From contig NC_087251.1 of the NCBI RefSeq assembly GCF_037042905.1, positions 31,002,001 to 31,066,000 of the forward strand: DNA of 64,000 bases. Reading direction: 5' to 3'. Positions 6,891 through 36,480 of this stretch are shown here, piece after piece. Under the pieces are notes generated by a model. It was given only the letters and a program-made list of their open reading frames with translations. It was not told the DNA's origin and made no database searches. The DNA is from Lytechinus pictus (taxonomy: Eukaryota). Position numbers and translations under genes: made by a program. Each line of letters opens with the position of its first letter. The first letter of the stretch is position 1.

Positions 6891-7208
6891 AAACATACAG
6901 CCAAGCTAAGAGAAGAACTCAACAAGCTCCAACCCCCAGAATTCCTTAAGGAACAACTAGAGAGCGAGAGCGAGCCCTTACCTCCTCTCTCATCGGAGGC
7001 TACCAACGATGTCAGTTGTGCCTCGGTCTCTGAAGATGCAGATAAGAGCAGTGAGAACGATGCAGAACACAGTGGATCATCGTCATCATCGCAGGAAATC
7101 ACAACAGCAGAGACGTCGACAGCGGACAGTCAGATAACCGAACCAACGTATATGTTTGGTATGTCTCTTGAAGAAGCCGTTGTCTATGACCCTGTCCTGT
7201 TTGAATGA
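6891..7208 (+). CDS. BIRC6: BIRC6 terminal coding exon
   Basis: caacag acceptor. KHTAKLREELNKLQPPE is followed by an acidic/Ser-rich tail, open to TGA at 7206-7208. Confidence 0.9.
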   Translation, partial: KHTAKLREELNKLQPPEFLKEQLESESEPLPPLSSEATNDVSCASVSEDADKSSENDAEHSGSSSSSQEITTAETSTADSQITEPTYMFGMSLEEAVVYDPVLFE

Positions 7209-11930: not shown

Positions 11931-14724
11931 CATATAACCTGTATTTTGCATTGTGCTGAGTGCATCAATAGGAATCAACTTGAATATGGATTGCATAGGC
12001 ATACAACATGATGGGACCCCCCCAAAAAAAAAAAAAAAAAAAAAAAACTCTGCTTAATTTCAAAAAGATTGCTTCAGTTGTTACTTTCTATGATATAGAT
12101 ATTGTTCATCAACTTACATATTACTAATAACATTCCTAACAGCAATCATCCAATGTCATATGAAAAGAAGATACAATCAATGCTATGATTGATATCAATC
12201 ACAGATCCAAGACATATCATCAGCTAAAGAAATCATTCTAAGATTCTGTATTTAATTTACAGGGCACAAATATGAACAAGAATGCCCTGGCAATGTTGCC
12301 TGCATTATGATATTCAGTATAGTAGCAGTGTAGATTTTGTGACATAGCACTTGAAATTTCTCTGATTTAATTCACTGTTTGAACAAAGAAAAATAAAAAT
12401 GATAATACAAGGCCACCAAGGGCCAATGCTGCAGATGTCCCGTTGAATGGCCTTGGAAACTTTTAAATGGCCTTACTATAAAAATAAAATTTTCACATGT
12501 AATTCTCCCATGAGAACACATGAAAACATTTATAACATACCCGACACATTTTATGGAAGAAGAATAAGAGAATGGATATGACCATTCAACCTCCTCCCTG
12601 AAGTGCTATACCCTATTGTTATGCACATTAGAATCTGGGAATGAATAAACCAGTCAGGCTCCACTGCACTCTCCCTTGCTTAACAGGTGGAACATATTTT
12701 GTGTTGGGTGGGTTGCCTTAACTAGCACCATAACTTCACTATCTGCACAGAAGTCACACAGGCAGGACCTATGGGTCTAACAGATATTTGAAGTTTTAAG
12801 CACAATTTTAAGTCCATGCCAGAGCATCAAGATCACCAGGACTGATGATGAGGCATTCCTGATGATTCCCTTTATGTATTCATTCCAGTTAAATTGTAAG
12901 TTGACATATTCATTTTCTCTTCACTTTGTACGGTAATTTGCATGTAATTGAGAAAGTCAATGTCACAAGAAAACCTTTGAATTTGAGATGATGAAGAATG
13001 TTATAGTCTTTAGTTTAATCAATGTCATGTGTCCAAGACCCATTTTCAAGATGATTAAATTAAGTGAAAAAATATAATTGTTTAATGGCATTAAGTTTTT
13101 AACTTTGAGTCTTAAGATTGGCAGGGGTATTTTGAAATGCTAATTAGGCAGAAATCCTTCTGTTACATGAAATGCATTATGGCACTGATCGTGTTTATTA
13201 TTCAGTCCCAAAATTTACAATAACAATTTACCAAAATCAATCTAGGGAATTACAAATATATGAATTTTGTGAGTTTGAAGATGCTATTACTCAGATTTTA
13301 TGTAGTTTGGTAATGTTTGGTTTTAGATGGGTTCCAGTTGCTGTTCTGGTCCCAGTTTTGGTTTCACTACAAATGCGATTGTCAAACCTCTACCATGTGT
13401 GACACAGTTTTTACTCAATGATGAAATCAAAGTTTTCACCTGAAATCTTACTAACATACTAGCGGATACTTGATACTCATTAAATACAAGCTTCATTGCT
13501 TATGAAGAAAAACTGAATAATTTTTTTAAATTGGAGAAGAAAAAAAAAAAACCTTTATTTGGTAACTGGTTTATTCATTTCATGTCATTTTAATATCCTA
13601 TAACCATCTCAGAAAAGTTTCATTAAATTTGATTTTGGAAATTGATCTGATATATGACCATGACCCGGTGACCAGGGGTGTGTTCCAGAGTCAAGTATGA
13701 CTTATCATGCTTAGTGCAGATGATGTGCACATGATAATGTAACATGCAATCTTGTTGATTAATATGCAGTAACACGCATCCTACAGGCATGATTTGACCA
13801 ATGCGAATATTTGCGATCAATTGCAAATATTCTGTTGCAATTTTACAACTGAAAGATCAAGTTAGCTGTAGCAAATCAGATTAAACTTCTTGTTTCAAGG
13901 AGCAGATTAGCAATCAATCACTAATTTGCAAATTAACTGCAAGACATATGATTGATTTAGGGAACAAAAATAGACTTGCAATTGATCGCAAATTACTTGC
14001 AACGCCCCATTAGACATACTTAACTCCTTGTGAAACACCACCCTGATATCAAAAGCCAAAACCTGACAACCAATATGTCATATCTTCAACATTGCATATG
14101 CATAATTTGATAGTGTTTTTTTTTTTCTCTCTCTCTCTTCACCTGTGCGCCTTGAGCATTTAAATGTATTTGGCACCTTAGAAATCACATTTATTATTAT
14201 TATTATTAAAAGGGTCTTTATAATTTCAAAGTTGTGATAAAAATAAGTTAACCCTGGTGAAGATATTGATGTTGGCAACATCCGTGATTGGAAAAGTGGT
14301 GCCTCTGTCTCACCTTCTGTTATGCAGGTGAGACATTCGACCCACTGCTATTGTACAATATCAGAAATTTGCAGTAGCATTTGGTATAGAACAAGCACAT
14401 TTCATTTAGCCAGAAAGAGTATTTCAAACAAGTACTTTGCCATATGTGAGAACAAGAAAACAAAGCTTGGGAGTGAGAGGGAGTAAGAACTGCAGTGTTT
14501 GTGGGAGCTCCCAAATGGTGCATTTCCAGAAAAAAAGGATAAACGACAAAAATAAGCACACTTTCATATCCTGAGTTTATAGAAATTTTGCGTACAACAT
14601 ACAGGAGTGCCCTCTCCAGGGTGGCAGGGATCATGCAGTGTGCGGTTTGATGGACCTTTCTCATTATTCATATTGAGTTCTCCAAAAAGGTTCTGAACCT
14701 TTAAATGATGGGTTTACTTGATCA

Positions 14725-14989
14725 TCACCTCGCATATCCACCTCTTGAAAACTTGACTTGGCAATTGTAAGAACACAAGTAGCCTTTCATGAGGATGGGT
14801 GCAGCCCGATGCTGGAAGTCTGATGATGTGACAGTATGCGCTATATGTGAGAGATTGAGGGGCATCGCAAATGTCCCGTAGGGCTGACCTTCAACGCTAA
14901 TGGGTGTACCGTGGAAACACCAATGCCAACGGGACGTTGAGAGGTAGAAGCACAATGTCAATGGAATGTCGCCCTCCTTGTATGGTAGC
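14725..14989 (-). CDS. LRR1: LRR1 last coding exon
   Basis: LPYKEGDIPLTLC...LNLSHIAHTV...GYLCSYNC resembles the LRR1 C-terminus. Acceptor at 14990-14991, stop at 14725-14727. Confidence 0.85.
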
Positions 14990-15195
14990 CTTCAAGAACA
15001 AATACACAAAATATATAAACAGTCAAAATGGGATACAGGAAACATCCCTCCTTAAGCAGAAGAATTCACAACATACATGAACATAGAATTATATAAAAGA
15101 TTAATGTTGGTCACAATGGTAGTATTATAGAAAATACTACCATTGTATTATAGTATTTTGAATATATATAATCGGGGTGCTTTTTCAGAATACAA

Positions 15196-15613
15196 TGTAT
15201 ATAAATAATGAACGTAAGCGCGTGCATGCAGGGCCAAAAAATGAACCATGTGCGAGAAGAGCCAATGGATATACCGCACCCAGGTCCGCAGGACCGAGTG
15301 CGGTATATCCATTTAGCGAGTCGAGCACAGAGTTCATTATTTAGGTCCTCTATGCACTAGAATGCGTGCATTGTTTTTTACAACCCCACTCCCCCATGTT
15401 ACTGAGTTGCTCTCAATGCTATATTTGATCTAAATTATAGATAATTCCAGACCTCGCACTATCCTGCACTATGACGTCAGAGTGCAGGATAGTGCATTTG
15501 GTATGACGTCAGAGTGCAGGATAATGCATTTTAGATGCCATAGTGCAAATCGCTGAATATCATGTGATCTGATTTGGACCAATCAGATTACAGAACATTC
15601 TTTGAGTTGTATA
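15196..15613 (-). repeat. Dispersed hairpin-type repeat in the last LRR1 intron
   Basis: Same family as 2180-2480, with extra tgacgtcagagtgcaggata direct repeats. Confidence 0.8.
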
Positions 15614-15783
15614 AAGCACAATACTAAATAAGAACATATCTTTTCTGCCTGCTATTTGATAATTCAATATTCCACACTGACATCAAGCAGAATATTCAGA
15701 TTAAGAATATTATTACATAGTTATCAAATCCTCCATCTTCAACAGTTTTGACATTTAAACTTCACAGAACTATGTCTACTTAC

Positions 15784-16315
15784 TTTTCTGTAATGGTTGT
15801 TCTTCCTGCTAGCTCTACCAGTTTAGGCACTGTACCTGAAGTGTTTGGGATATCCACAGAGCTCTTTGCTGTAAACAATGTTGAGTCACTCCCTGACAAA
15901 TCAATCTCCTCCAACCTCAGCTTAGAGAACGAAGATGGAACAAATGTGATTGCACTGCCACTCACGTTCAGGAAGCGCAGATGGTGCAGCTTGCCAAAGT
16001 TCTCTGGCAAGCTCTCCAGGCTATTGTGTGAGATGTCCAATCTAACCAGTCTCACTAAGCACACTAGTTCACATGGCAGATGCCTGATTTGATTATGTGA
16101 AACATTCAGGCATTGCAATGTTCTTGCCAGGTGATTACTTTTGCAAAGTCCCATAGGTAGTCTTTGAAGTTGGTTATTCGAGATGTTGAGTTCAGAAAGG
16201 TTTACAAGCTGTTCAAGATTCTCTGGGATTTCACAGATGCTGTTGCGGCTCAGGTCTAATCTTTTCAGATGCTTCGCCTTCAGAATCCTGCTGTCAACTT
16301 TCTTCAAACCACAAT
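15784..16315 (-). CDS. LRR1: LRR1 exon 4, leucine-rich repeats
   Basis: DCGLKKVDSRILKAKHLKRLDLSRNSI followed by several LxxLxLxxN repeats and a PKLVELAGR BC-box-like segment. gtaag donor. Confidence 0.92.
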
Positions 16316-16879
16316 CTTTTAAAAAAAAGAAGAGAAAATTGCTTGAGAATGGACTTCGTTCAGATTCATAAAGTATAGATTTATATTTTTATGGAGATTG
16401 ACATCAACAAGCACATTATTTCACTGCAAACCATTGACATATCGGCACATAAATCCTATCAGATCATAGTATATGAGCCAAAGAGGGAACTAATTTGTCA
16501 ATTAGTTGCCATGGAAAACCCCTTTTTTGTAAATTTGAGATTCTCTATGACCTATAAAACTAATCTGAGAATTGTCACTCTCATCCAGATACATTAGTCA
16601 AAGATTAATGTTAATCTCTTATAGATATCACAGTTCTTATAGTGCTTCACTGACTTACCTGTTTTTTTTGTTTTCTGATTTGTTTTATTTTGTTCAAAGC
16701 AAGTTTCGTTTCAAGTTCAACCTTCCCTTAACATGATATCAAACAGGTGTTAAGTATGCAATTCTTCGAAACATTTAATTAACGACAATACAAATGTGGC
16801 ATATATCATATTAGAAGTATCATCTCTCCTGTGAATGACCGAGAATATAAGCAGGATAGTGCTTTCTCATATTACATAC

Positions 16880-17087
16880 CATTAACCTGAAGAGATTCCA
16901 TTTTCTGAGGAAAGCCAGTACTGATAGGATAGTCCCGTCTCTGGTGGATCACCACATTAGTCTTGGGCCGTTCTACTTGGGACTGTTTGGCTGGGATCAG
17001 ACTAGAGAGCTGGGTATTGGGTAGGTCCTGGTCTCGGTGGGCTAGATTGACAGCTGTCAGGAAGGCTTTCAGCTGGAGAGGGTCAGC
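16880..17087 (-). CDS. LRR1: LRR1 exon 3
   Basis: ADPLQLKAFLTAVNLAHR...RRDYPISTGFPQKMESLQVN. cag/gtatg boundaries, phase-compatible with neighbours. Confidence 0.9.
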
Positions 17088-17658
17088 CTGGGTTAGATGG
17101 AAGATAGAGGGGTAAATGTACATACATTACAAAAAAAATAATAGCTTGTACTTCAATTTCTGATTACTTAATATCCTGCCCAACATTCATGTTACAAAGG
17201 ACTAATAACTGCACTACTCTGCTATCAATACAAACCAGGTAATAAATTGTAATTGCATAGCCCAGGGAGTGAAAATGTGAGAATTCTAAATTTTGAATAA
17301 AGCTAAAAAATTTAAATGCCTCATCATTTGTAAATGAGAGCAACCGCACACCAATCAAAGCTACAACCAAATCATTTACTAACCAAGTGGTCTATTCGTC
17401 ATCTAGCATTTTACCATTTTGTGTCATTTCCTGTTAAGCTGTACCCATTTCGTCTAATATCCACTTGGTATCCCAACACATAGTCTATATGATTATATGA
17501 ATTATTTATGCACCAGATATGGACCAATTGGATATTAGACCAATTAGTAGTAGACCAAGTGGGTTTAGCCATGGTGGTGTTAGGTGATCTGATAATTAGA
17601 TCATCTGCTAATAGACCAAGTGAATACAAATCGTTGACTAGTATTGTAGAAGACTCAC

Positions 17659-17757
17659 CTTACTGATACACACATCCTGTGCTGGTTCATGGATACGAAT
17701 TGTGGCTTTGCCTTCTTGAACAAAGCGCCCAAAGATCTTGACCACATTCCCTTTCAA
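17659..17757 (-). CDS. LRR1: LRR1 exon 2 (N-terminal PH-like domain)
   Basis: LKGNVVKIFGRFVQEGKATIRIHEPAQDVCISK contains the FVxEGKAT motif shared by LRR1/PIF1 N-termini. 99 nt, cag/gtgag boundaries. Confidence 0.92.
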
Positions 17758-18444
17758 CTGTACAATAATAGCAGAAAATAAATTACAATTCAATGTCTTT
17801 ATAATGAAAATGATTCTCTATGGCTCACACATACAGTGCAACCAGATTGAAAGTCAATCAACAATCTGTAATAAGTGACAAAATTGAGTTTGAATTGTTT
17901 GAAAATTTACCAGTGCTGGAAATTTTTGAGCCATAATATTATTTCTTATTTTTTCAATTGGAATTTCCTTTATATACCTCCTTCAATTTGATTTTGTTGA
18001 TGCACTGTTGTGTGAAAAAAAATAAAAGAAATGTAAAAATCTTAATTTGGTATAATACAAGCATTTTTTCCAGCCTCTACATCAAGCAAAACATCAATTG
18101 AGAAACATTCCTGAATTTAAGGCATAATATTTTTGGCTTTCATGAGGAGTGGATTTGCCGCCATCAGACTTTATGAAAAGCACTGACAATACCTGTAGAT
18201 AGTCTCTGGGGCACAGCTAAGAAGCTGACTTCGACCTCAGCTGGTAGTCAGGTCAGAACAAAAGATATCATGAATTAAAAATATTACCATTTAAGACAAT
18301 GGATGTAGTATTCTACTGACCAGTCACAAAACAAATTCCACTCTGGGTGGACATCACCTGTTACTGAGGAAAAGCCAAAATGTTTTAAAATCCCTTTAAA
18401 AGCCTTCAATATGTATGCCATACTTCCAAACAACATAAACTCAC

Positions 18445-18627
18445 ACAATACTTTGCTCCATCACGGTCTTTAGCTGTGCAAATTGCAAGGAAGATTGCAC
18501 CTTTGCCGTTCCCAGCCAGCGGCCTTCGACCAATCACAACAGAGGCCCTCACAGATCGCCCTCTCTTGACCATACCATGTGATGGCAGCATCCTGTTTTG
18601 AATCTCAACATCGCAGGGAAGCCTCAT
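18445..18627 (-). CDS. LRR1: LRR1 first coding exon (leucine-rich repeat protein 1, CRL2 substrate receptor; total CDS 1287 nt, ~428 aa)
   Basis: MRLPCDVEIQNRMLPSHG...KDRDGAKYC resembles the LRR1 N-terminus. gtgag donor. A cag acceptor at 18644-18646 implies upstream non-coding exon(s). Confidence 0.9.
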
Positions 18628-21600
18628 GTTTTTGTTTGTTTTTCTGAAAATATAACAAAGGAATACATTTTATTGTTACTTAACTAGATTCAACAAAGAA
18701 GCATTATTACTCCCATGACATAGGATCAGTTCACAAGACAGAAAAGTAGGATAAATTTGGCACAATCAATGAAATTTGAGTACATTCCAGTACAAGTTAC
18801 ATCCCACTTTAGCTTCCAGAATGACCTGCGACAGGGATTAATTCTTCAAGGTTCAAGTACCGTTTCCGAACTGGGAAGCCTTTGACCTCATGAATCAATA
18901 TGTAATGAACGAAGTTATAATGCTGGTTAAAAACCCTTTTGTGTATTTCTGCAACTAAGTTGCAAACTTGTGCTGATTTTCCATTCATATTAATCTATGC
19001 AGTGAAATGCATTGGTTAGTCAACTGCTACCTGCTGTCTATAGCTCCCTGCTTTCATTTTCTGTTCATGTTGCAGTGAGCATTTTTTATCAATTAAAATT
19101 CATTGGGTCCACACTGCATTGCCGACATACCATGATTTTAAGTTTCATGCTGGAGACTCCCGCATTACTAGGCCTAGGGACTCCAGTCTTGCTCATCCCC
19201 TCAAATCTCTCTCTCTCGTGGTTGTATCACAGCCTACCCCCAAATACACAACGCCTGTGATCTCATGCAACCAATTACCATGCATGCAAGACAGAAAATC
19301 CCTTTCTCACGCCTAGGTGATCGTTGAACTTGGCATCTCTGCTTCTGACCTGGCAATGTCATGATCAGAATGGTTCTCTGGCTGGCGAACAATGATTGTG
19401 CAAAATTTTGTTTTCCAAGAAATCTAGCTAAACAACAATTAGTTTTTGGAAAAAAATATCTAAAGATGAAATTGTGTTTGAAATAATCAAAGTTATCAAG
19501 TGTTTGGAAATCAGTGATTGGATACAGCAGAGGCAGAGCAAGTTACCATGGTAACTGCCTCGGCCTCCTTGTTGTAATTGAAGCCACTCACACTAGTGCA
19601 AGGTTAGTATTAGTATACTAAAATTGCACAAGGAACCATGTTTGGCAGTGGATTTTCTGGCATCCACCTCACACAATATTTATGGCTTGATTTTTCTGTG
19701 CGCTGCATCAATGTCCCCTAGCCTAGCTTGTGTGAAATTTGAAGCATGAATGAAAATAGACCAAAAGCTTTGGTCTCTGTTATGTTGGTTGTTCCGCTGA
19801 ACTCCGCTGGCTCCACTCACCAAATACAGAGACCGAAGTTCTACCTAACCCTGTAAGTAAGAGCTCTGATCGGATCGGATGATCGAGGGCACATACTAAT
19901 CCCTATGATCGGTATCGGTCGAAAGTATCGGCAGTAAATATCGGATTTTGCTATTTGTTTATCAAGCACAAAATGACCCAGATTGTCCTTAACTGACCTG
20001 ATTGTCCTTAGCTGACCCCATGCATGCCAAGTACTACTCACATATCGTATTTATCCCTTGGGAGTCTGGGTCTCACTGTCAAGCGAGGCAGTGATTTACG
20101 ATCGTTCTACGCCGACATGACCCAGCTGGTTGGTATCACTACCAGCGTTAGAATGGACCCCCGCCTTCACAGCACCAGCTTAATGCCGCGCCCTTGTAAT
20201 AGTTAAATACGTCATCGCAAGCCAAGGCCTGGCCGTCCACTAGAGAGAGGGAGGGGGAGAGGTAGCATCGGAGCACATGTAATAAATACGCCAATGCAGA
20301 CACTGTCCCGATCCGATCCGCACAGAGTTAGAGAGGTGAGAGAGAGAGATTGGGAGAGGGGACGGAGGAAGTTATGGAAGAAAAAGAGAGCAGAGAGCAA
20401 ACCTCGTGGAATGATGCCAACTTTCATCTGAGGGTATTTATAAAATTTGATCAGGCCTGACGGAAAATGTAAGAAAGGTCTGATTTTTTTTTTTTTTTTT
20501 TTTTTGTATGAAGTCGTTTGTTTTTTGGTTGCTTTTTTTCAACAAGCGTTAATCATGAAAATAGGGATGATTAAATGTTGAAGTAACAGCCTCAATGAAA
20601 ATACCATATTTTGTATTCAAAGTTGTGGCGGCACCGGGAGCGGGTGGGTGATTTGAATAAACAATGAAGTCCATAATCCCGTAACTATAAAAAAAAAATC
20701 TGGCCTGCCCTCAGCTCGCCCCAACATTTTCCATTATGACATGAGGTGGGATGAAGAAGAGAAAGAGCAGATGATATTTTTTTTGCTCTTTGCTAGAGGT
20801 TTCAAATATATCTACATGAATATTTGATGTCCATATTGATATTAACTGAAGATAGTAGCTGTGAAAATACAAGAATGAAAGACTTGCAATATTTGAAAAT
20901 TAAAAGATAATATTTCAGAGATAATTTGTAATTTACCATCACTCAGAAACGTTCTCTAATTGTTTTTCTCCTCTCTTCCACTCTGCTTTCATACAAGTTA
21001 TCATGAATCAACTAAGTTCTCTCGTTCTCTTGCCTCTGGCTTTCCACCCTCTCGGTTACTCTTTCCCTTTCCTCACCTCAATGACCATTCACAGCATCTT
21101 TTTCACTCCTGTGCAATGCCAGTTTTCATGCCCCAACACTTAATAATGGAAACACTTCTCAAAATTGCACCTCACATTTTCCATATCATGTCATCAAAAA
21201 CATCTGCAAAGATCTTTTTTTTCTTGACTATTCTTTTTAATGAAAGCTTATTTTTCTTTATTTTTTTACAAATGAGATTGTTATGATCTGATAAATTGAG
21301 TTTCAAGTTTTTACCAATATATATTTATTTTTTTACATCAAATGACATTTCTATTGAAATAGATAAAAGTTGCAAGTTGTGACGAAACTCCCCTTAAAGA
21401 TTAGCAATTGAAAACAAAATTATGGCATAAACTGCAAGAAAAGGAAACAAAAACCTGAAACCCGGACATAATAAACATATATTGCTCAGTTTTTACGAAA
21501 CCAGAAATCCAACCATAATGTTTAGTTTTATTAAAAAAAAGGTGTAAATTTTAAACCCATTTCTTAATCATTTTCCATTCCCTGATCATTAAAATATATA

Positions 21601-22201
21601 TCTTCCTCATTTAACTAACCATCTTTATCTTCTCTTTTATTAGGGCTATTCAAATGGAAAATTCAACTGTTAGCACCCCCTGAAACAAAAAAAAAATTAA
21701 AGGATATTCATAGTTGGAAGTAACATGACTTGAACAGTAAAATCAAACAAGAGATTGAAACATTCACAATTTTCCCCTCTCACAAGTCTGTAATTGAGGA
21801 TTATTTCTTTTGATAAAATAGCAAAAATGAAAATGGTGGAAATGCCTCTATCAGGAATAGCATATTCATGACGACATAAATTATGTTCAACTGAAAAGTA
21901 AACATTACTTATCTTTAAATGCAAAGTCTTCAATTTGTATCAGATTTATTGAGATATTTTCTGCTGATCAGATGGACTGACTATCACTATTTTGTGGTAC
22001 AACAATTTAGATTTAAATTTATCATTATTTCCGTAAATCATGCCAAATGTGTCATTATCGGCGTTGAGAGATTTTTTTTCTTATGAAATCCTAACTGCAC
22101 AAAAAATTATCACAGCAATTAAAATAATGCAACAAATACGAAAATTCAATAAACTTAAAACTTGATCTTAGTCTGATCTTCATATCTGTGAACAATTAGT
22201 T

Positions 22202-22865
22202 TTAACGAATGTAGTGATAGTTCACCTTAATGACTGCTAATTTGTTTAGGTTTTCTGGGTCCAGGGAGCATCTTTTCTTGGTAAGAATGTTTCCTGCCAA
22301 TGAGAACATGCGTTCTGAAGTAACGCTCGACATCGGGCATGCTTGGAAAGAGAGAGCGGTTTGGGTTAAGTTTGGGAATTCTCTCCCGTTCTCTCCGAAA
22401 TAACGTAGAACGGCTTCCTGACCGCTTGTTGTGTCAATATTGGGTTTCTCAAGGTACCGCTTGAGTTCTCGTGATGCGACATCGCGGAGAGATTCAATAT
22501 CCACCGCGATGTCGTCATCACTATCAGGCTCCGTTGCTGCCAGTATTCCTGCCATTAGAGATGCACCCTCCATGTTAGTTGCAGCATGACGGTCTTGAAC
22601 AGGAGGCGGAGGTTGATTGTTGATGGGCGTGGCAGGGCTACCATTGTCGCCATCGTCGTTGGTGTACTCAGGCGGCGTCTCGTCGGAGTCGTATGGGTCG
22701 CCGTATTCTTGAGTTTGCTCTGACTCTTCTTCGGTCTCATCCTGATCTCTGTTAGCCGCCGAGATTGGTCTTGTATATTTTCTCTCGATGACGGAGATGA
22801 TGGCGTCTATAACCGCCGATTCCACCTGTTCCCGTTTGTGGCGGGGGATGAACTTCTTCTTGTAT
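22202..22865 (-). CDS. hAT transposase last exon, C-terminal hATC domain with catalytic Glu
   Basis: Splices to give LDPR-YKK. FPNL...PMSSVTSERMFSLAGNILTKKRCSLDPENL, then TAA stop. Confidence 0.9.
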
Positions 22866-23262
22866 CTGTGATGGAAAGATGGGGAACAAAACAAATAATT
22901 TAGAAAAGTAATGGAAAAAAATTGTCGCATTAATAGAAACACAATTTATTTTACATTATTACAGAAAGATAAACAATATAAATGTAAAAGTAGTTTCGCA
23001 CTTTACTTTGCTTTGCCCGGGACTTATACCGAATAACATAATTGTGCAATGCCCAAGAACTTGTTCCTTCATTTTTCAAATAGAATTTTGTTTAATTACT
23101 GGCATGGAAAAGGACCAAAAAATTTAATTATTGGCTTGCTATTTCCAATGAAACTACATTTCTGATGGTTTTATCGCTACACTCATGCATTGACTGTATC
23201 TTATCACTTGGATCTTATCTTATCACTTGGATTCAAAATTTTAAATTTCAAATTAAACTTAC

Positions 23263-24071
23263 CGAGGGTCTAGCAGAGTTGCTGCCAAGTAGATGTGGTC
23301 GTTGTCATCAGACATGACGTGGGTCGCCATCACTTCGCGAAGTTTCTTCAAGAGTTGATCTTTAGTGGCGCCTATCCCCCTCACCTGAGCACGCTCCACA
23401 GACACAATAAGCCCCTTTAATGTTGGAAAGTACGATGAAAGTGAGGAGGTCGTCTTACTGCACAGGAGTGTTGCCTCGTGAAACGGCTCGAGGACCTTCA
23501 CAAATTCTTGCATCGTGTCGCACATGTCTGTCCAGTGGTTGTAACATTTTGGGAGCCCCACACCATGGGACTGCATGACACGATCCTGGATGAGGGCCTC
23601 GATTGCAAGTCGCTGAGGTAGAATCGTAGAGAGCATCCTCAGGCAGCTATTCCACCGTGTCTCAACGTCTGCTTGGAGCTTGATGTGGGTGGAGTTGGGG
23701 TAGTAGATTTTGAGAAGCTCCTCAAATTTACGCTTTACTGGCATAGAGTTCTTCACTTTAGAAACAATCTTCCGGAGGACAGTCAATCCGTCTAAGATAC
23801 GGCGCTGGGTCTTCATTACATCATGCACCACGAGGTTGAGATTATGAGCGAGGCATGAAACGGAGCCGTGGATGCTCCCGTTGTTGGCTGTGTCTCGGAG
23901 ACTCTTCTTGATGTTCGCCCCGTTGTCGCTCACCCCGCACATGATGCCCATCGCTCTCGTATCGTGGCACCACTCATCTACAACTTTTTCGAGCCGTGAT
24001 CGAATGTTGTCGGCCGTTGCAGCCTGGCTAAATTCTTGGATACTCAATAAAGCGCTTCTTAGTTGTGGTAT
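23263..24071 (-). CDS. hAT transposase central exon
   Basis: SDNGAN (second Asp), CLAHNLNL (CxxH), TRWNS, LEPF, AATLLDPR. cag acceptor at 24072-24074, gtaag donor. Confidence 0.9.
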
Positions 24072-24770
24072 CTGTCAAATTTATAAAAAAACAAAATATA
24101 TTCTAATAAGTCTCGAATTTTCTGCAATTCCTATTTAACATTAAAAAAGTGAACATATGGCTTGTAGGGAGATTTAGAGAAACTTAAAAGCATTAAAAGT
24201 TTCATTCTGATGAGATAGAATTATTGAACCTTGGGAGCCAAATAAATTTTGGGAAAATGTAAGGGAATAATTGACCGCTTACATTCAAGGCTGTCCTTCA
24301 TGATTATGAAAAACAATTATACTTCAAAGTTAAACCATGAAGAAGTCACCGTAGTTACGGATTTAACAATTAAGGAGGATGAAAACACACGTACACGTAA
24401 TGCGTGGCCATCACGATAACCAATCAGTTTTTTATGTTTTGCGTATTTTAAAATGGGCAATTGAGTGTGTTTATGGGATTAATATTGTTAAAGCGAAATT
24501 CTAAGATTAACATTGACACCGGAATCATTATAAATCCGTTATGATAACATAATTGCAACAAAAATCAGAAAGGTTTTATAATTGGAAGAGACTCGTATGA
24601 ATAAAATATAATGAACAAAATACGGAGTAATTATATAAAGGAAGAAAAATACTATTCAAGAGATGAAATAAAACTTCTTTAATTATTTTTTTCTCTCAAA
24701 ATATGAGGGAGAAAATCAAAGAGTAAAAGGTGCATATTAGAACATAGAACAAAATAATAAAATAGATTAC

Positions 24771-25461
24771 TTAATCTTTCTTCATTCGTCACCAACCAAT
24801 GTAGCGTAACACACATGTACTCGGTGTTTTGGCCTCTCCACATATCGGTGGTAAAGCTAAATGGTACAACCGTCCTCCTCAGATCTTTTTGAAGTGCCAT
24901 CTTCACCTCGCAATAGATAGCAGGTACTAAATTCATAGAAAATACTGGTCTGGAAGGCATTCTATAGCGAGGGTCCATGTATTGCACAAGGTTTCGAAAA
25001 CCTTCGTTCTCGACGATGTTAAATGGGCGAAAATCTAGGGCCATCATCAATGCTATTTTCCGAGATATTGCAACTTGTCTAGGGTGGTTGTGGGGGTATG
25101 CCGACTCGACAGACATAAACGACGTCAACGATGTCTGCTGCTCTCTTCCTCTATGCCTCGGCTGGCTTGATGTCGATGATGTAGATGTCGATGACGGAGA
25201 TGTCGATGACGAAGTTGTCAATGAAGAGGAGGATGATGATGGTGCGTTTGGCTGTGGGCGGCGTCGTGGGATATAAAGACAAACTTGCACATGCCTTGCT
25301 AAGTTTGTTGTATTAAACTTTCTTTTGCAGGTCCCACGAGATACAGATTTACTGCAATGAATGCAGATAGCTTTGCACTCGTCATTTTCATCGATTCGAA
25401 AATGCTCCCAAACTAGTGACTTTTTTCTTCTAAGTGCCTGCGAAGGTTGATGATCATCCAT
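24771..25461 (-). CDS. hAT transposase exon 1: BED zinc finger and first catalytic Asp
   Basis: KSLVWEHF...CIHC...TTNLARH (BED finger), PFNIVENEGF, YRMPSR, FTTDMW. The 3' donor (gtaatc at 24770) is uncertain. Confidence 0.85.
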
Positions 25462-25531
25462 TTTAGTTACTACAGTATGTTAACCAAGCTAGAAAACTTG
25501 TGAGACTGGCTACTAAGAATATTTTCTCAAG

Positions 25532-25540
25532 CCTTTTATA
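25532..25540 (-). promoter_or_regulatory. Candidate TATA box of the transposase gene
   Basis: TATAAAAGG on the minus strand, about 75 bp upstream of the ATG at 25461. Confidence 0.5.
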
Positions 25541-26005
25541 GACGAATTGCGATATCGATTAAACGAATACAAATTATGAGACAAGTAAGTAAATCAATGA
25601 ATAAAGAAAAGTCCTTCCGTTCCGACACTCCCCGGCTTTCCCCTTTGAAGATCATTTTTCTTTTTTTCCCTTTTTTATCTTTTCCGATTGTAAACTATCT
25701 AATTAATGAACACATAAACACAAATTTGCGGCGTTTTTCTTTGTGGTTCATCTTTCTTGTTTAATTTTTCCGATTGTCACATTTCTGGTGGGATCCACAA
25801 AGATGAAACTCATTTCCTTGCATCGGAAGCAGACTCTTCCTCAAGGCAGATCTTCTTGCAAGATCAGAGAGTCCAAATATCACGAAGAACCCTTCTCGAG
25901 TGTACTTCACTTTCAACCAATCAGCGGACATTTCATCATGAAGCGGGAACTGGACTTCGCAACGATGGCCCGTATGGCGATTTGCAAGCAAATTCCTATA
26001 TTTAA

Positions 26006-26431
26006 AGGGGAAGTTCACCTTGCTAAAAAGTTTAGTGAATAAATAGAAACGTAATTGAAAAAAAAAAAAATTATGAAATGTTTGAGGAAAATCCATCAAA
26101 GATTAAAAGTTCTGATGATGTCAATATTTTGGTTTGTGACGTCATACGCGACCAGCTACCCGTGTATTGTGGATTACAAAAATCAATAAAATGTGATTTT
26201 ATCAGTATATTAAGTGAAAATATTATCTTACATCCGCCTCCGAAAGAAGAAAATTTTTAGTCATCATGAACCATTTAAATTCTTCAAGTTTTATATTACA
26301 TACTATAATGGGAAAAGCAGCACGTATGTGTCGTCACAAATAAAAATCTCCTCACCGTCATATCATCACCGATACCTTTTATTTTTTCTGATATTTTTAC
26401 AAGAAACTTTCAGTCAGGGTGAACCTTCCCT
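26006..26431. mobile_element. TTAA-site MITE (Kolobok-like) nested in the hAT element
   Basis: TTAA|AGGGGAAGTTCACC ... GGTGAACCTTCCCT|TTAA. Confidence 0.8.
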
Positions 26432-28301
26432 TTAAATTTGTTATCAATGACATTTCGTGGAATGTGGTCTAACAAACTAAATCTGTGGATACCGTTGCCG
26501 TCTGAAGGGAGATGTTTGTTAAATTTCTGAACAATTGCAAACTATCATGGGCACAAGGGATGCTTACATGTAGGCCTAGTTCATTTCAGACGTTCAAAGA
26601 ATATCAGTATTCCTATTGAACAAAGTGTGGCGTAGATATTTAAATACATATGATATTTTAAATTTCAAGGATATGAATAAATCTTGATTGGCTGTGAATA
26701 GTGATATCCCGATATTTTAATCTTTAGGATTGACTTTATAATCAAAATATTTTCTAATTCAAATCTTGTGGTTTTATAATCGACAAGAATTCAATCTATA
26801 TCAAATATTCGACTGTCACTATATATTCACATCCGAACTGGATTAATTTCAAATCTTCGGAATTTAGAGAGTATATATATAGGCCTACGATAACAAACAA
26901 TTTTTATTCCAAGAGTTAAAATGCAGCAAGAACTGCACATCACTATAGTATGTACCCCCCCCTTTATTATAATTTAACGATAATATAATGAAATAATAAT
27001 TTTCTGAAAGAGCACAGGTGTTTGTGGTGGTTTTCTTTAATGATAATAAGAATATAGTATTGGTGAAGATGATAGTAATGGGTATGTTTAGAAATCTGGA
27101 ATAATTTCTTGTCAGAAGGGGACCAACACCACTGAGCAAATGTCGGAAGCGCACTTCCCCCACGCTACCCCCAGGCGTTTAATCGGGGCTACAAAGGCGT
27201 AATGTATACCCCTTCACCCTTGATTGAAAAACAAAATGCTCTCGTTATGTAACTCAGATCTGGAAGCTGTAATCAATCCTCTCTCTTTCGGCATGCTAAA
27301 AGGCATACACGATAGGGCGGAAAGAGAGAAGATAGAGATAGAACCAGGAGGAGGAGGTGTTGGGTGACAGAGTAACAAAACGGTCACACACCCAAGTTCA
27401 CTCTTATGCTATATTCGCACACCTTTTTCCCATAATCACTCAAAACGTATTCGCGCAAGAATGTTTCCCATATGATTTCATATCATCCCTCTTCATAATT
27501 ATACTCTAGAGGTCTGCTTGGAGGCAAATGATCGCTGTTTTATTTTTATATCACCACAACAGGTAAAAAAATGAGGGATTTTGCGGTAATATGAATTAAT
27601 AAAGTCGATCTTTTTTTGTGCTTTTTTTTTCTTCAATTCCTGCCTGTTTATTTCAAAATTACCATGAATTGATAAAACAGGGCAAGATCGTGTTAAATTG
27701 CAAAAAAAATGAAAAGTCGCAAGATTGGGAAACAGAGTATTGGCGCAGTTTTTTTTTTCAAAGCACCCTTTGCCCCCCCCCCCCCCCCAGAAAAAGGGAG
27801 ACAGTTATAACACAAGCGAAAATAAAAGGCAAGAGAAAGTAAAAGATCGAAATTAACATTGGAGTTTTCACGCTTTGCGAGGAGATTGGTTGCTCCTGTT
27901 CCCAACTTTGCTAACAGATCATGTGTGTGAGAATGTGGGATGATAGAAAAAATCAGGGGGAAAAAACTCTTCATTCTGACATGCGGGAGCCTCAGCTGGA
28001 GCTAGCTCGTAAATTTTGGCGAAGTCCTGTCCTCCTTGCTTGGAATTGACCAATGAGAATCGTTCCCTCTGATTTCCATTCACGGTACTCGATGCTGATT
28101 GGATTTATCATCTGACAAGATCTCCTTCATTATCACGAGCGTTGTTTACAAAACCACTGGAGCGTAATGCGCGCCAGTCGATTAGGGGGATTATCTCAAC
28201 TTCTCAAGTGGATGTTTCCAAAATATTAAACAAGTCTGGTCCCTGGGGTTAAAGTTGTCAATGAAGGAGATGTGGGCAGGAAAGGGTTTTCATATGTGTT
28301 A

Positions 28302-28555
28302 GGGACGCACCATCAGATATCCAGGGGAGGGGGCTCGAAGTTTGAAAAAAAAAACTTGACTTGCTAATTGAGCAACGACAAAAAATTGACTCAACACGAG
28401 AGTAAAAAAAAACTTGGTCCACTGACAAATCATCTCAAAGGTGAAAAAAAATCTGTTCTCAATGAAGTATGGAAAAAAAATGCTCAAAGAAAGGAAAAAA
28501 ATTACATGAACGCAAACTTCCAACTCCCCCCCCCTGGTATCTAATGGTACGTCCC
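28302..28555. mobile_element. Harbinger-like MITE nested in the hAT element
   Basis: TTA|GGGACGCACCATCAGATATCCAGGGG ... CCCCTGGTATCTAATGGTACGTCCC|TTA. Confidence 0.75.
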
Positions 28556-31008
28556 TTACGGAAGATGATTATTCAGGGAGATGTGTACCAGCCATGATCC
28601 TTCTAGTTTTCTTTCCTATCTTTTACTTTTATATTTGTCATCACCATGATTGTCACCAACATAATGTTCATACCTACAGCAGTATTGTGTAACTCGAAAA
28701 CTAATACTCGGTTTATGTATTAGTTGGGGGAAAAAAATCCCCTACTTGACCTATGAGACTAAAAATTGCAATGAATAAGCTAATTTTGCTATGTCGACTA
28801 ATAGTAGCCCAGTTCAATCAAAATAATAACAGATCAACATTGATACTCTATTAAAAAGCATATAATTTTTTTATTTAGTTTCTTATAAGACGCACAAAAC
28901 TAATTCAGTTCCAGCATATTTTGTTCTACGCACATCACTATCCTGTCCCCGAACCCCCTATTGCTACGATCTGGCGTTATTTTAAAGTAACATAAACCAT
29001 TGCTCTCATTCCTTTCAGCCCCCCCCCCCCCCCGTTCTCTCTCCCCCTCGTACGGTACCGGTAGTCAGTCTCTCTCCCGATCTCTCTCTCTCGAGCTCAT
29101 ACAATCGTTTGAATTCCCAGGTCATCATATCAGGACGGCCAGCATGGAGCTCCACCAAGCACCTAGTAGTACCTCGATGTGATGCTGCACGCGAACACGT
29201 GGTCTTTTTTCTTTTAGTGTTGTTTCCTCCGATCCTTCAGCGCTAGCGCTGCATTCATATCACATTATCACACCCATGGCATGCACAACCAACGACTTCA
29301 ATTAATATATGCACTGGATTTAATCAGTATCACAAACAAGTTGGATTTATACCAGGATTTATAATGGGAATAATAAGATTCATAAGTATAAAGGTACATT
29401 TTTTGTGTGATCGTGATTTAAGTTGGAAACTTCGAAATCTATTCTGTTACATGTTCAAATTTGAATTGGTGATCATGACAATGATGCGATCTAATTCTTA
29501 AAGCCATGCAATTCTACACCAAGTCTGTCTTAATTTATGATTAATTTTTTTTATTTAGATCTTTTAATTTTTTTTTTGTTCTGTGTACAAACATTGTGCA
29601 TTGTATCTGATCTACAGGTGTGTAAACCAGTGAAAAAATAATTTACTATAAGGACAGTAAAGTTATTCAATTCAAAATGACATGAACCACCCCCCCCCCC
29701 AAAAAAAAGTAACGTTAAATGCAAATGAGGAATGAGAAAGAATAGGGCATGATTTTCAAAAGCTGCAAAGCGAGAGATGGAAAAGATGGCTCGAGGAATG
29801 GGTGGTAAAACAGATGAAAAAATGTAGTCAAGATAGGAAAATAAAAATTAGAATCAATGGAGGAGTTGGTTTACACCCCTCTTCACTTTCTTGCACAGCC
29901 TTCATAACCGCTCACCTTACTGCGGGAAAGAAGAAATTTAAACATGCTTTTCATATTCTTAAACTGATTAAAAAATATACACATGCTTTCAAATTCAAAA
30001 CACATCAAGTTTCCTTTATTTTTCGAAATATAACAGAAAGTGAAATAACAATTGAGAACGTGAAACAAAACAGTGAACATGATGGGCTCAGACTTTGGAG
30101 GTCGCGATAACATTCTTGTGCACGGTGGTGGAAGTAATTTACGAGCGCAGCCTGCCAAATGGCGCTAGCTGGGCAGAAAAAAGTGAACTGTAAATCTTTT
30201 TCTTTAAGAGGAATGTGGAATGATTGTGGGGCACGCGACTCCAATTAATCCGCGGTTTTCTGCATGGCAACAGGTATTTTTTTATCTTTATTTGTGGTAA
30301 CCCCGGAGCAATGATGACCTCAGTTAAGGACATCTAAGGACATCAAAACATCCATTTCACTGTTGCAGTCATATCGGCTTGCTGCACGGCAGCGCAGCCG
30401 ACCAAGAGCTAACACAGCGAGCGCACAGCAGCTACGGCCGGCTAGCGCAGCCAACTTTGGTCCGGCGCGGTGCGGGGAATTTCGCAACCGATCATAACGA
30501 TACATTTGCTATGATCGGTGATCGGCATGAAACGATCGATCAGCATTGATTAGATCGAGATCGGCCGCCGATCCGAGAATCGGTTACAGGGGTAGTTCTA
30601 CCTCGATTTGTACAGGGACTCAATGGACATATGTTTATGTATTAAGTTCGGATAAACCAGGAGGTGGGAGTTGCGCGACAGCCGAAGTAAGTCACTGTTT
30701 TTTCCCCTTTTAAGTTTATTTTTCCCTGTTTTGGTGCGTTTCAGGCCAAAACGGAATAATAATCTTTATTTTGGACAAGTTCTTTTTATAATTTTTATGA
30801 AATAAAGACAATTGATGAGCCTTGACGGGGGGATGTTGCATTGTAAACCCCCTAATGGTGGCTGCACGATAGCGAGCCGTCTGAGGAGAAATTAAAAAAA
30901 TAATAAATAATGTTAAAAAAACTTCTCGAAACAGACGGCTGCCAGGCCAGCTGTAGGCCGTAGGCCTACTCTAGAATGAAAATAGCTGACAAGTGACAGG
31001 AAGATTGA

Positions 31009-31534
31009 TAACCCAGAGAGCTCCCGCCCGCGCAGCGGGCGGGAGCCCAGAAGCTTACCGTGTATTTTACCATTGTCACCGGACTAGGGTGATTTATGGT
31101 CTAAATATTTCTCCAAATGAATTGTGAAAACAGAAAGTATACAATTACCACGATTATATGGATGAAGGTCTAACGAGTGGCAGATTCCTGACATCTGGGC
31201 ACAGTCTGGAACCTCAAAAAAACGAAAAGTTCTCTCCTTCTACCCCGTCTCGATCGGCCATTTTTGTTAAAAATCGTAACAAAATGGCCGATCGAGACTG
31301 GGTAGAAGGAGAGAACTTTTCGTTTTTTTGAGGTTCCAGACTGTGCCCAGATGTCAGGAATCTGCCACTCGTTAGACCTTCATCCATATAATCGTGGTAA
31401 TTGTATACTTTCCGTTTTCACAATTCATTTGGAGAAATATTTAGACCATAAATCACCCTAGTCCGGTGACAATGGTAAAATACACGGTAAGCTTCTGGGC
31501 TCCCGCCCGCAGCGGGCGGGAGCTCTCTGGGTTA
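31009..31534. mobile_element. Near-perfect foldback element with 9-bp TSD
   Basis: ~260-bp arms that are almost exact reverse complements, with a tiny loop. TA...TA termini. TSD GAAGATTGA at 31000-31008 and 31535-31543. Confidence 0.92.
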
Positions 31535-33196: not shown

Positions 33197-33846
33197 ATGT
33201 GTTCGTTCGCTACAGTAAATGTTGGTCACGTCAGCTCAGCAAACAATTAGGCCCTAATCAATTTACAAACATTCTCAGACTAAACAGGTGATCAGTATAT
33301 TTAAGATAGATCTAAATTTTACTTTATATAAAAGCCCCGTCCCCGATCTTATTTAAAAATGAAACTTAGATCTAGGGCCTACTAAAAACTCACCAGCGGC
33401 ACCGCAGCAGTTCAATTATTGCCGCGCCAGAAATCCGAAATCACAATCTCGGACGAACGGCCGGAGAGGGCTCCCTTTACGCAGTAAGATTTTGCGAAGC
33501 TAGCTGAGATTGGTCATGTTGGCGAGGGAAAACCGACGGATAAACAGTTCTCTGAGGACGTTTTGACGACCAAGTAGGGTATGTTTTTAACTGCAGCTAT
33601 ATTCAAATAAGTATTTACTATTTTAAGATTGTCCTCGAATTATAATGAAGGCACGATGTGCATTAATCCTATTATTTTTCTCGTTCAGACTTCGAGTTCG
33701 ACCTCCCACTTCCAGCTCTCTTCTGCACTGTGCAACGCATCGGCGCCGTCGGCCGGGCTCGATCTCTATCGCAAGGCCCACGGCACGGCGACCGGCGCGG
33801 CACGGGCTTGGCCCTCTGGCTGGAGTCCCAACTAGCCTGGAGGCTT

Positions 33847-34199
33847 CAGGGGCCGATTGCACGAAAGGGTCTTTGCAAGGACCGTCTTTCGTGTCGCCCA
33901 TTTTTTATGATGCGCCATGTGAAACGCATTTCAAATAAATTATCTGCAAACATATTTTATTTGTCTGTTAAAATAAACAAAATATTTATTTATAAAATGA
34001 TGTAGGGGGGGGGGGGCCTATACTATAGTAGCTCATGAAATTGTATAAAATTTTATTTAAAACTATAAAAGCAAGCTTACGAATTTTATTTGTTTATCAT
34101 AAATTTCAGGAACACCCCGCTTATACTATAGCGCATCATAAAAGATGGGCGACACGAAAGACGGTCCTTTGAAAGACCCTTTCGTGCAATCGGCCCCTG
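33847..34199. mobile_element. MITE with ~70-bp TIRs
   Basis: CAGGGGCCGATTGCACGAAAGGGTCTTT...ATGATGCGC mirrored at 34131-34199. Confidence 0.85.
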
Positions 34200-35897
34200 G
34201 AGAGTAAAAAAGTATCTACTGTACTGTAGTGTAGGTCACTCTAAGCACCAAGGCTTATTAATTCCTGTGTTAAAAAAGTGAGTGCACGCGAATTAAATGT
34301 TGGACCTAAATTACTAGATCTTACCATGGAGCTCCATGACAAAATCTGTTCTTAAATTAGACTCTAGATATTACTAAATTGAAAAAATGTATAAATAGTA
34401 CTCGCCTGGTCTTTTCTTGGGGTATTGAAGCCTTTTTGTCCAGAACTTGCTCAACTTTTGCGGCAAATTTTGTCGCCATAGGGTTGTGCACATTCTCGTT
34501 TAATACTGGTTGTCACGTGACACAGCAATGTCGTTAGGCTGTTTGGCCTGTATTCAAGGCGTTCTATCCGTTATGATTTTATATTGAATGAAGCTAATTC
34601 CATCAGGTATAGGCCCCTATCAAGTCAAAATCGATACAGGGATCGAGAGGGGGGGGGTGGAGCCAAAAATTTCCCAGTCACATGGTATGAAAATGATATT
34701 TTTTATGATTGTCCACGATCATTAGGGCAAACCCGTGTGTGGCAGTACGGTAGCGTGATGAGTAAAAAAAAAAATAAATAAAAGAAAGAAAGAGGGCCAA
34801 TGTAGGCATACATGGCGTCTGGGAATAAAGTTGCTTTATATGTTCCAAGCGAGTGAAGCAAGCGAGAAAAAAACTTTTCATGCAAATCTAAATTTGAGAT
34901 AGATATCTTAACTTACACTTTTCCTTTTCTTTTCATTAATTCCCTTCATTTCTTTTTTATCTTGGTTGTAGAACTTTCGGGGGCCCCTAGGCCTAACCCT
35001 TCCATCGTGTACCCCCAGTGCAATATCAGCAGGTGGGTCTCGATAACTCTGGATATTTAGCAATTAGACCTATTTATAGAAAAACATAACGTTAATGTTT
35101 TGACCCCTTCCCCCCAAAAAAAGGAAAAACAATTATAAACTAAGTTATATACATCCCCCTTTTCTCATTTCGCTTTTTATTTTCTCTATTCCCTCCTTAT
35201 TTTTTTTTGGGGGGAGGGACCTTTTCGGGGGGCATCGCCCCTAGCTACGCGCCTACCAGATGAAGAGGCGAGCGAGCAAAACCTTTGTCACTTTTATTAC
35301 AAATATCAATTTTGCAATAGATTTTGACATAACATTCGGAATTATTCTCGCATGCATTTTTCTTTCCTTTTGCTTTTTTATGGCCTTTTATTTCTCTTCC
35401 CTTTCTCTTTCTGTCTTTCTTTCTTTCTTTCTTTCGTTTCCTTCCTTCATTCCTTTTCTCTTATCCCGTTTTTTTGTTGGTGAAATCCACTGGACCGGGG
35501 ATCAAGGGCCAGCCTGCATGCCCCCGGCGGTTTACGCCTCTGCCGTGGATGTAAGCTATATATACGCATGATCTTAATCTTCATTATAGAGGCGCATCCA
35601 AGATTTTCCAAATTAAGTAGGGGGGGGGGGCAGGGTGAATTTTCTCAAGTAAAATTTGACAACTCCCAAAAAAGGTTCTTACTAAAAAAAAAAAAACCGG
35701 TCATTATATTGTCTCGCGTAAAGTTTGACAAGTTAAAAAAAAATGGTCACTCAAAATGAAAGTCATTTTGTCCGCGTAATATTCGGCAAGCCCCCCCCCC
35801 CCCACAAAAATAAGAAAAGGGAAAGTCATTTTGTCCACGTGATATTTGGCAACCCCCCCCCCCCCAAAAAAAAAAAAAAAAAAAAAAAAGGTTTTAA

Positions 35898-36480
35898 AGG
35901 AGAATGAAACCCTTGAAACCAGCTGAATCCATATCAAAGAGAAAAATCAAAGAAACATATTGTTGAAAGTTTGAGGAAGATTGAATGAATAATAAGAAAG
36001 TTATGAGCATTCGAATATTGAGATCACTAGTGCCATGTAGATCCTCCCAACGGCAATGCGACCAAGATCTGTGATATCACACACGTACAACTCCCTCATT
36101 ACTTTAGTACTTATTTCACTTATATTCTCACTTTTATAGAGTCTATCACAAGGTGAGGTGTTCTCTTTATGAGATGACAAGTACAGAGGTTTCACAACAT
36201 TATATCATTGATGAATCGTTTGTCATATGATTAGAATGAGCAAAAAGAGATGTTTTGGGGTATATTTTCAGTGTCCAAATGGGAGAGTTGTACGTGTGTG
36301 ACATCACAGATCTTGGTCGCATTGCCAATGGGAGGATCTCCATAGCATTAGTGATCTCGACATTCAAATGCTCATAACTCTTTTATTGCTAGTCCTATTT
36401 TACTCAAAGTTTTGTTGATCTTATTCTTTGATTTTTCTGCTTTCACAAAAGCTAACTTGCTCCAAGAGTTTCATTCTCCT
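35898..36480. mobile_element. TTAA-site MITE (Kolobok-like) with long imperfect TIRs
   Basis: TTAA|AGGAGAATGAAAC ... GTTTCATTCTCCT|TTAA. Internal arms 36001-36093 and 36285-36378 pair. It interrupts a ~60-bp tandem array (gtcattttgtc...ggcaagcccc). Confidence 0.85.

Follow-up and report, generated by a model that had tools for sequence, protein, structure and literature searches.

A 10.7-kb hAT transposon in the sea urchin Lytechinus pictus: a full-length copy, most likely disabled at the donor of intron 1

Transposons of the hAT superfamily are described as 2.5–5 kb in length, with terminal inverted repeats (TIRs) of 10–25 bp and target site duplications (TSDs) of 8 bp (PMC3942097, in excerpt). 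Hermes of Musca domestica has an 8-bp TSD, short imperfect TIRs and asymmetric subterminal repeats, and its BED finger is indispensable for transposition in vivo (excerpts of PMC10368747). Gulliver is cited as an active hAT (PMC9940879, in excerpt). A hAT of Pseudocercospora fijiensis, with 133 full-length copies of 9.5–9.9 kb, has captured histone H3 sequence (PMC6710886, in excerpt). Here we describe a 10.7-kb hAT element in a stretch of 64,000 nucleotides from Lytechinus pictus (contig NC_087251.1, forward strand, positions 31,002,001 to 31,066,000), which is referred to as the window and in which position 1 is the first letter. The element is a new member of this known superfamily, and we consider it probable that it is a full-length, recently inserted copy, most likely disabled at the donor of intron 1.

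Like Hermes and the other members of the superfamily (Ac, hobo, Tol2), the element has a BED finger, an RNase H-like DDE core, CxxH and RW motifs, and a C-terminal hAT domain; the three features of Hermes ends given above were also observed. It differs from Hermes in length (10.7 kb versus approximately 3 kb), in transposase sequence (approximately 20% identity) and, as from hATs generally, in its broken intron-1 donor. The P. fijiensis element resembles it in being roughly double the usual hAT length and in having short TIRs with a TSD of 8 bp; unlike that element, no cargo open reading frame (ORF) was found in it, and its copy number looks low. The 8-bp TSD, TIRs of 10–25 bp, protein motifs, Hermes-like fold (on the orthologue) and subterminal repeats by which hATs are recognised were all found. 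The length lies outside the typical 2.5–5 kb, which is a descriptive rather than a defining criterion; a preliminary description made from the sequence had called the element unusually long, and this stands against the typical range (PMC3942097) but not against the 9.5–9.9-kb precedent (PMC6710886). A search of the literature on hAT transposons in Lytechinus, with Repbase and Dfam outside the search, returned no paper on this family.

Ends, target site and transposase

The element is 10,749 bp long (19846–30594) and lies between two matching 8-mers, GTTCTACC, at 19838–19845 and 30595–30602 (both plus strand). A pattern search located the TIR on the transposase 3′ side, TAACCCTGTAA, at 19846–19856 (plus strand) and that on the 5′ side, TACCCCTGTAA, at 30584–30594 (minus strand). 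These 11-bp repeats match at 10 of 11 positions, the mismatch being at position 3, and the pattern matched twice in the whole window, namely at both ends of the element. With the terminal T and A of the element included, the direct repeat extends without mismatch over 10 bp, AGTTCTACCT; a reading as an 8-bp TSD with TA ends nevertheless fits a hAT. The TIRs begin TAACC and TACCC, with the TA start of the hAT consensus (T/C)A(A/G)NG and lacking its G at position 5; that consensus is given as a tendency and was searched with up to 4 mismatches in its source (PMC6027215, in excerpt). Compared with nTnnnnAn, the target preference of the Ac group, the single TSD matches at the T and not at the A (1 of 2 positions).

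A joint from 19836 to 30594 was observed in reads or contigs of all four runs examined over 16800–31000. It skips 10,757 bp, equal to the 10,749 bp of the element plus 8 bp, and sets the total of element and TSD; a TSD of 8 bp and one of 9–10 bp are indistinguishable by it, since the terminal T and A also match. Two diverged contigs of organism A resemble the element ends as far as 19843 and 30597, and beyond these positions their flanks differ. GATCG/CGATC words numbered 4 and 9 in the two terminal 150-bp stretches versus 0.13 per 150 bp elsewhere, forming a GATCG/ATCGG cluster at 19868–19944 and a GATCG/CGATC cluster at 30489–30583; by analogy to Hermes, these subterminal repeats are likely BED-binding sites. 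End-to-end comparison also showed a 13-mer, TGTCCTTAACTGA, at 19984–19996 (plus strand) with an inverted partner at 30320–30332 (minus strand), the sole 13-mer common to both terminal 600-bp stretches. The combination of TSD and TIR is by itself weak evidence for an element: 8-bp repeats enclosing inverted repeats that match at 10 of 11 positions, with a spacing of 2–20 kb, were found 3 times in the window, and 40 shuffled windows yielded 16 (0.4 per shuffle). The ends are secured by the GATCG clusters, the 10,757-bp joint and the diverged copies with other flanks.

Three stop-free minus-strand blocks matched zf-BED (E 1.4e-9) and Dimer_Tnp_hAT (E 2e-16) in Pfam. The middle block found a relative with 97% identity in Lytechinus variegatus, XP_041462046.1, and the exon joins were defined from its sequence. 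The resulting gene spans 3,260 bp on the minus strand. Exon 1 (24775–25461) carries the ATG, the BED finger (C33/C36/H57/C61), the dimerisation region and D206; exon 2 (23263–24071) carries D278, C302xxH305, R368-W369 and an internal Met270; and exon 3 (22202–22865) encodes an acidic linker, E683, the hAT C-terminal domain and the stop. A predicted TATA-like box, TATAAAA, lies at 25534–25540 (minus strand), 73 bp upstream of the ATG. Removal of both introns in silico gave a 719-aa frame with a single stop, identical to XP_041462046.1 at 567 of 602 aligned residues (94%). Intron 2 (22866–23262, minus strand, 397 nt) is a canonical GT-AG intron; a contig of run X1 (record 3) joins 22865 to 23263, and a public 450-aa protein also spans it.

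In an alignment of 149 rows, C33, C36, H57, D206, D278, C302, H305, R368, W369 and E683 fell in conserved columns, with D206/D278/E683 forming the DDE triad and the CxxH and RW motifs present. The predicted structure of XP_041462046.1 had a mean local confidence (pLDDT) of 84.9, and its top 10 Foldseek matches were all Hermes (4d1q: E 3e-17, template modelling score 0.57–0.58); a profile of 52 relatives matched Hermes 4d1q at E 2e-66. On these grounds the hAT assignment is firm, and the identity, boundaries, 10.7-kb size and TATA-like box given in the preliminary description were all borne out. Residue 673 (codon 22343–22345) is Gln; the L. variegatus orthologue has Leu there, as do 82 of 99 homologues. 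The transposase departs from well-conserved columns at 9 places, and at all but this one the orthologue departs as well.

Two further observations were made on the transposase region. In the C-terminal stretch at 22284–22600, most of the coverage in runs X1 and X4 came from contigs that are diverged (at least 85% alike); therefore, related hAT copies are also present in these runs. The XP_041462046.1 model begins at the equivalent of Met116 and is without a BED finger, so that this copy may be damaged upstream too or merely modelled short.

Intron 1 and its transcripts

Intron 1 (24072–24774, minus strand, 703 nt) was placed via XP_041462046.1, whose residues at the junction read NEER|IPQL. 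Its acceptor is normal. Its donor, at 24774–24769, is TTAAGT, so that the boundary reads AGA|TTAAGT with TT in place of GT. This is not an assembly error, because record 18 of run X4 covers 24739–25371, including the donor, with 0 differences from the window. Other boundaries were tried and rejected: sliding the intron by 1–2 bases gave no GT-AG, GC-AG or in-frame AT-AC pair on manual reading, the GT at 24770 shifts the frame and meets a stop at codon 245, and the GT at 24750, although it keeps the frame, agrees with U1 at only 2 of 11 positions. According to the excerpts of PMC6280755, most changes of a donor from GT to TT disrupt splicing; among non-canonical donors TT ranks second in use, and its accurate use is accompanied by a second GT at +5/+6, in sites that also have G at −1.

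Of 6,818 pieces and 196 joints, 24 and 15, respectively, were listed and make up the contig evidence; depth at intron 1 was 3–8. Record 3 of run X1, in which intron 2 is spliced, nevertheless reads through the intron-1 acceptor, and record 4 of X1 and records 17 and 18 of X4 likewise cross the donor or the acceptor unspliced. Among those listed, all four contigs crossing an end of intron 1, from two runs, were thus unspliced there. With intron 1 retained, an in-frame stop is reached at 24679–24681, giving a 260-aa product with BED, the dimerisation region and, of the triad, D206 only.

Public protein models gave a similar picture. A phmmer search showed that L. pictus XP_054763940.2 and XP_063958558.1 consist of exons 2 and 3 from Met270 (450/450 identical); the older version XP_054763940.1 (443/450) has the same start, as does XP_063963945.1, a 392-aa model from another L. 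pictus contig that is cut short (384/388). The protein cluster holding these models also contains an unrelated 53-aa entry, and none of its 4 members is full length or has exon 1. Exon 1, and hence BED and D206, is missing from all three public sequences of the family in L. pictus. A search with exon 1 among proteins of 125–401 aa returned no exon-1 product of L. pictus and only two proteins, both distant.

These results bear on the statement that the element is intact and autonomous, possibly active. The exons are indeed stop-free with all motifs; the TTAAGT donor of intron 1, however, had gone unreported, and the claim of autonomy does not agree with this donor, with the retention of intron 1 in the listed contigs or with public models that lack exon 1. 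Transcripts unable to give an open frame had been named beforehand as grounds against autonomy, and the evidence points that way. The copy was most likely crippled recently, with ends that would still be movable in trans.

Several points weigh against this reading. At a depth of 3–8, and with 181 of 196 joints outside the listing, minor splicing could be missed; runs X1 and X4 are not recorded as RNA; and GT in the orthologue is deduced from its gene model, not from its DNA. A GT-donor copy may exist elsewhere or in other animals. The core is identical to the orthologue at 373 of 384 aa, above the neutral-drift expectation from a DNA divergence of 5–6%, and the lineage was therefore functional until recently. 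Finally, the TT site does have a GT at +5/+6, but is without the −1 G of the tested sites, and an in-frame GT at 24792, a weak donor 18 nt upstream within exon 1, leads to an open frame of 713 aa.

The last two points raise the possibility that the copy is leaky but autonomous, with some transcripts spliced at TT (719 aa) or at the 24792 GT (713 aa) allowing occasional transposition. Low-level use of a TT donor is possible where a second GT stands at +5/+6, as here (PMC6280755, in excerpt), and both routes yield open frames. The six residues lost in the 713-aa form belong to a strand end and the loop of a hairpin (E99-110/E116-128) and lie at the hairpin tip in the orthologue model. The model of the copy on the second contig also starts at Met270, so the lesion may predate the last jump. 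Against this stand the four of four unspliced contigs and U1 matches of 6 of 11 for the TT donor and 5 of 11 for the cryptic GT versus 8 of 11 for the working intron-2 donor. Furthermore, the 24792 route leaves 12 residues between anchors, below the minimum of 13 among the 113 rows with anchors (17–19 in the closest kin), and Gln673 persists in either product. Occasional autonomous transposition is therefore regarded as unlikely. It is a rather improbable extension of this idea that the TT donor is a throttle and not a sign of decay. The hAT lineage would then keep jumping on a trickle of TT- or cryptic-GT-spliced mRNA, perhaps in the germline only, and the main, intron-retaining RNA would yield the 260-aa protein as a repressor that binds the GATCG repeats or poisons the oligomer of the transposase.

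A raw RNA run, X21, of which approximately 6% was read, gave a depth of 0–1.4 over the transposase, with reads opposite to the orientation of its LRR1 reads and 8–12 differences each; it was not used as evidence on this copy. In nearly all its reads, X21 carries the organism-B letter at sites 17052, 18487, 18497 and 18553 in exons of the LRR1-like gene described below. It is labelled as the same species as X1, which shares the organism-B letter at 17052 only; the window and X4 differ from it. Run X21 thus represents either a divergent stock or a label problem.

Arms, age and relatives of the family

The transposase gene is flanked by two arms. In the 3′ arm (19857–22201, approximately 2.35 kb or 2,356 bp) no gene was found, and a sequence scan showed minus-strand AATAAA/ATTAAA signals at 21950, 21641, 21532, 21329, 21262 and 21241. 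No gene was found in the 5′ arm either (25462–30583, approximately 5.1 kb or 5,133 bp), which is mostly low-copy and present in organism B. The 5′ arm contains two nested MITEs (miniature inverted-repeat transposable elements), in line with the earlier count of at least two and with the arm lengths of about 2.4 and 5.1 kb given then. MITE 1 (26006–26431, 426 bp) has TTAA on both sides, ends AGGGGAAGTTCACC, which we take to be of the Kolobok type, and high read depth; a related copy lies at 44902–45055. MITE 2 (28302–28555, 254 bp) has TTA on both sides and ends GGGACG, and is presumably of the PIF/Harbinger type. It is also present within the organism-B copy, as record 14 of run X12 spans 28141–29014.

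A second gene in the arms was considered and rejected, on the Pfam result and the shuffle-like ORF counts. Among 63 stop-free frames of at least 55 aa in the element, Pfam matched two, both being transposase blocks, and the number and length of arm ORFs were like those of shuffled sequence, the observed counts being reached in 32% and 16.5% of 200 shuffles. The earlier statement that no second ORF could be recognised was therefore upheld. In the DNA run of organism B, depth was 37–419 in 12 of 15 arm bins, compared with 72–84 in LRR1 introns and up to 147,176 in repeats; therefore, the arms beyond the MITEs are low-copy DNA of the family. Low depth of run X12 at 23436–24383 was not taken as a deletion. 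Contigs of X1 cover much of the arms, which fits read-through transcription.

The length of the element could have another source, namely an ordinary small hAT enlarged on this copy by later insertions, or unrelated ends paired by chance. The two nested MITEs and the shuffle frequency of TSD plus TIR (0.4 per shuffled window) speak for this. Nested insertions explain little of the length, however: the arms total 7.5 kb, to which the two MITEs contribute 0.68 kb, and low depth was found in most arm bins. Organism B and the diverged copies in organism A have colinear arms, the joint equals the element plus 8 bp, and the GATCG clusters and the 13-mer are common to both ends. Enlargement of this copy or chance pairing is accordingly very improbable.

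Divergence was compared next with that of host sequence. Contigs of organism B differed from the 5′ arm by 5.0, 5.6 and 6.0%, and from LRR1 introns and exons by 5.2 and 7.4%. Element-end copies with other flanks in organism A were 3–10% diverged with many gaps. A second locus, on another contig, has 99% protein identity (384/388 aa), and in a quick tree of 32 rows the path was 0.014 within the species versus 0.051 to L. variegatus. The ratio of observed to expected CpG was 0.96 in transposase exons versus 0.29 in LRR1 exons and 0.43 in exons of a BTB gene. Contigs of X1 showed 12 differences from the window in 6,249 letters; this near-identity, like that of X4, was not used for youth, since the two runs agree with the window at most of the LRR1 sites listed too, and related animals may be their source. 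With a perfect TSD, no CpG loss and the 99% second copy, youth, as first claimed, holds for this insertion or sub-lineage. It does not extend to the long layout, which is old: arms and nested MITE are common with the related species at host-like divergence.

In searches the transposase came out close to Hermes and ZBED4-like proteins, and it may belong to the Ac group of hATs, as against Buster or Tip; the quick tree contained no named Buster or Tip references. Two sister Lytechinus hATs, XP_054775594.1 and XP_041456512.1, and a moray eel protein, KAJ8290588.1, have approximately 40–60% identity to it and form one clade with the element family (11 rows; branch support by SH-aLRT, an approximate likelihood ratio test, 100 in the quick tree). 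In JGI metagenomes, 138 protein pattern hits were obtained and none was confirmed, and the donor pattern gave 0 hits. We read the copy as belonging to a family of hATs with low copy number and long arms in Lytechinus sea urchins.

In RefSeq, the models of L. variegatus (XP_041462046.1) and L. pictus (XP_054763940.2, XP_063958558.1 and XP_063963945.1) are named 'ZBED4-like' and annotated as host zinc-finger genes. They are 94–100% identical to the transposase with the same intron positions, are N-terminally truncated, and come in records without ends, TSD or arms. A domesticated ZBED-like host gene with ends kept by chance would agree with the transcription, the L. variegatus orthologue and a core apparently under purifying selection. 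It is difficult to reconcile with a perfect TSD within a high-copy repeat, the TIRs, the lack of CpG depletion, the broken donor, and the presence of at least two loci in one assembly, one of them frameshifted; we regard domestication as extremely improbable.

The sequence of events for a full-length, recently disabled copy may be proposed as follows. By analogy to Hermes, the family transposase would cut the element at the 11-bp TIRs with its BED fingers on the GATCG repeats, and the element would be pasted into a high-copy repeat with duplication of 8 bp, the duplication itself being observed. The copy is transcribed, with intron 2 removed in one contig and the TT-donor intron 1 kept in the listed contigs. 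The resulting RNA would give either the 260-aa BED/dimerisation fragment or a fragment of 450 aa that has neither BED nor D206; presumably both are unable to transpose. The length would be an old trait of the family, neither recent accretion nor cargo.

Host repeat, gene neighbourhood and significance

The repeat interrupted by the element is approximately 390 bp long on the minus strand, with its left piece at 19757–19845 (loose ends at 19756–19757, very high depth in all four runs) and its right piece at 30603–30905 (joints and loose ends at 30883–30915). Its depth reached 147,176 in the DNA run versus 72–84 in LRR1 introns, although depth does not equal copy number. It begins with a T-rich run and ends with a hairpin plus a CTAG-like motif, and we take it to be a non-autonomous Helitron/Helentron-type element. 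Several joints at 19832–19844 represent variant forms of this repeat. Empty-site reads were seen, but with such flanks they come from other copies of the repeat and do not demonstrate an empty allele at this site.

An LRR1-like gene (PH_LRR1 and LRR matches in Pfam) lies on the minus strand at 15783–18628. Its first coding exon (18425–18628), 1.2 kb upstream of which the element lies, is preceded by an acceptor; therefore, a 5′ untranslated exon lies farther upstream. A strong minus-strand donor, CTG|GTGAGT, is present at 33393, with a candidate first exon at 33394–33500. If this donor is right, intron 1 of LRR1 would contain the element, oriented like the gene. From the findings as a whole we infer that the ancestral donor was GT, that activity has been lost, that the copy could be mobilised in trans, that BED binds GATCG and that the element may have this candidate position in an LRR1 intron.

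Other features were noted in the window. A near-perfect palindrome at 31017–31528, 400 bp from the hAT, has 248-bp arms at 96% and a 16-bp spacer and reads as a foldback or MITE-like element of young age. At 2185–2485 and 15191–15472, separated by 12.7 kb, a repeat is present in two inverted copies; these also show an 8-bp repeat with a 10-of-11 inverted repeat (2446–15230), and are probably two MITE copies, not one element. More TIR-bounded MITE-like elements are present at 33844–34202, 35940–36438, 38655–39152 and 56303–57020, and a tandem array of approximately 163-bp units at 425–1760. A BTB/BACK gene identified with Pfam (61149–63092, plus strand) is presumably BTBD7-like. Exons at approximately 3100–7200 (plus strand) seem to us to resemble BIRC6; two of their frames were searched against Pfam at E 0.001, without a match.

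Somatic integration in L. pictus has been given as 47% for Minos, 3.0% for Tol2 and 1.9% for piggyBac, with 3.6% in the control (PMC11361634, in excerpt). The proposal of a native transgenesis vector is weakened because Minos already works in this species, while a trial as a second vector is favoured because Tol2, a foreign hAT, is ineffective there. The element is not a ready-made tool, as this copy is probably unable to move by itself; its ends and reading frame are those of a native echinoid hAT, recently active, and a possible second vector beside Minos. Were the improbable throttle to prove true, it would be a native self-limiting hAT with arms of 2–5 kb in a species where Tol2 fails. Should the element prove to be within the first LRR1 intron and on the strand of that gene, it may be a natural gene trap. 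The locus also shows that stop-free exons with all motifs do not equal an intact gene when a splice site is dead, and it corrects the annotation of the 'ZBED4-like' models, which are transposon fragments. For Lytechinus, it documents a hAT family whose 10–11-kb layout has persisted across a species split.

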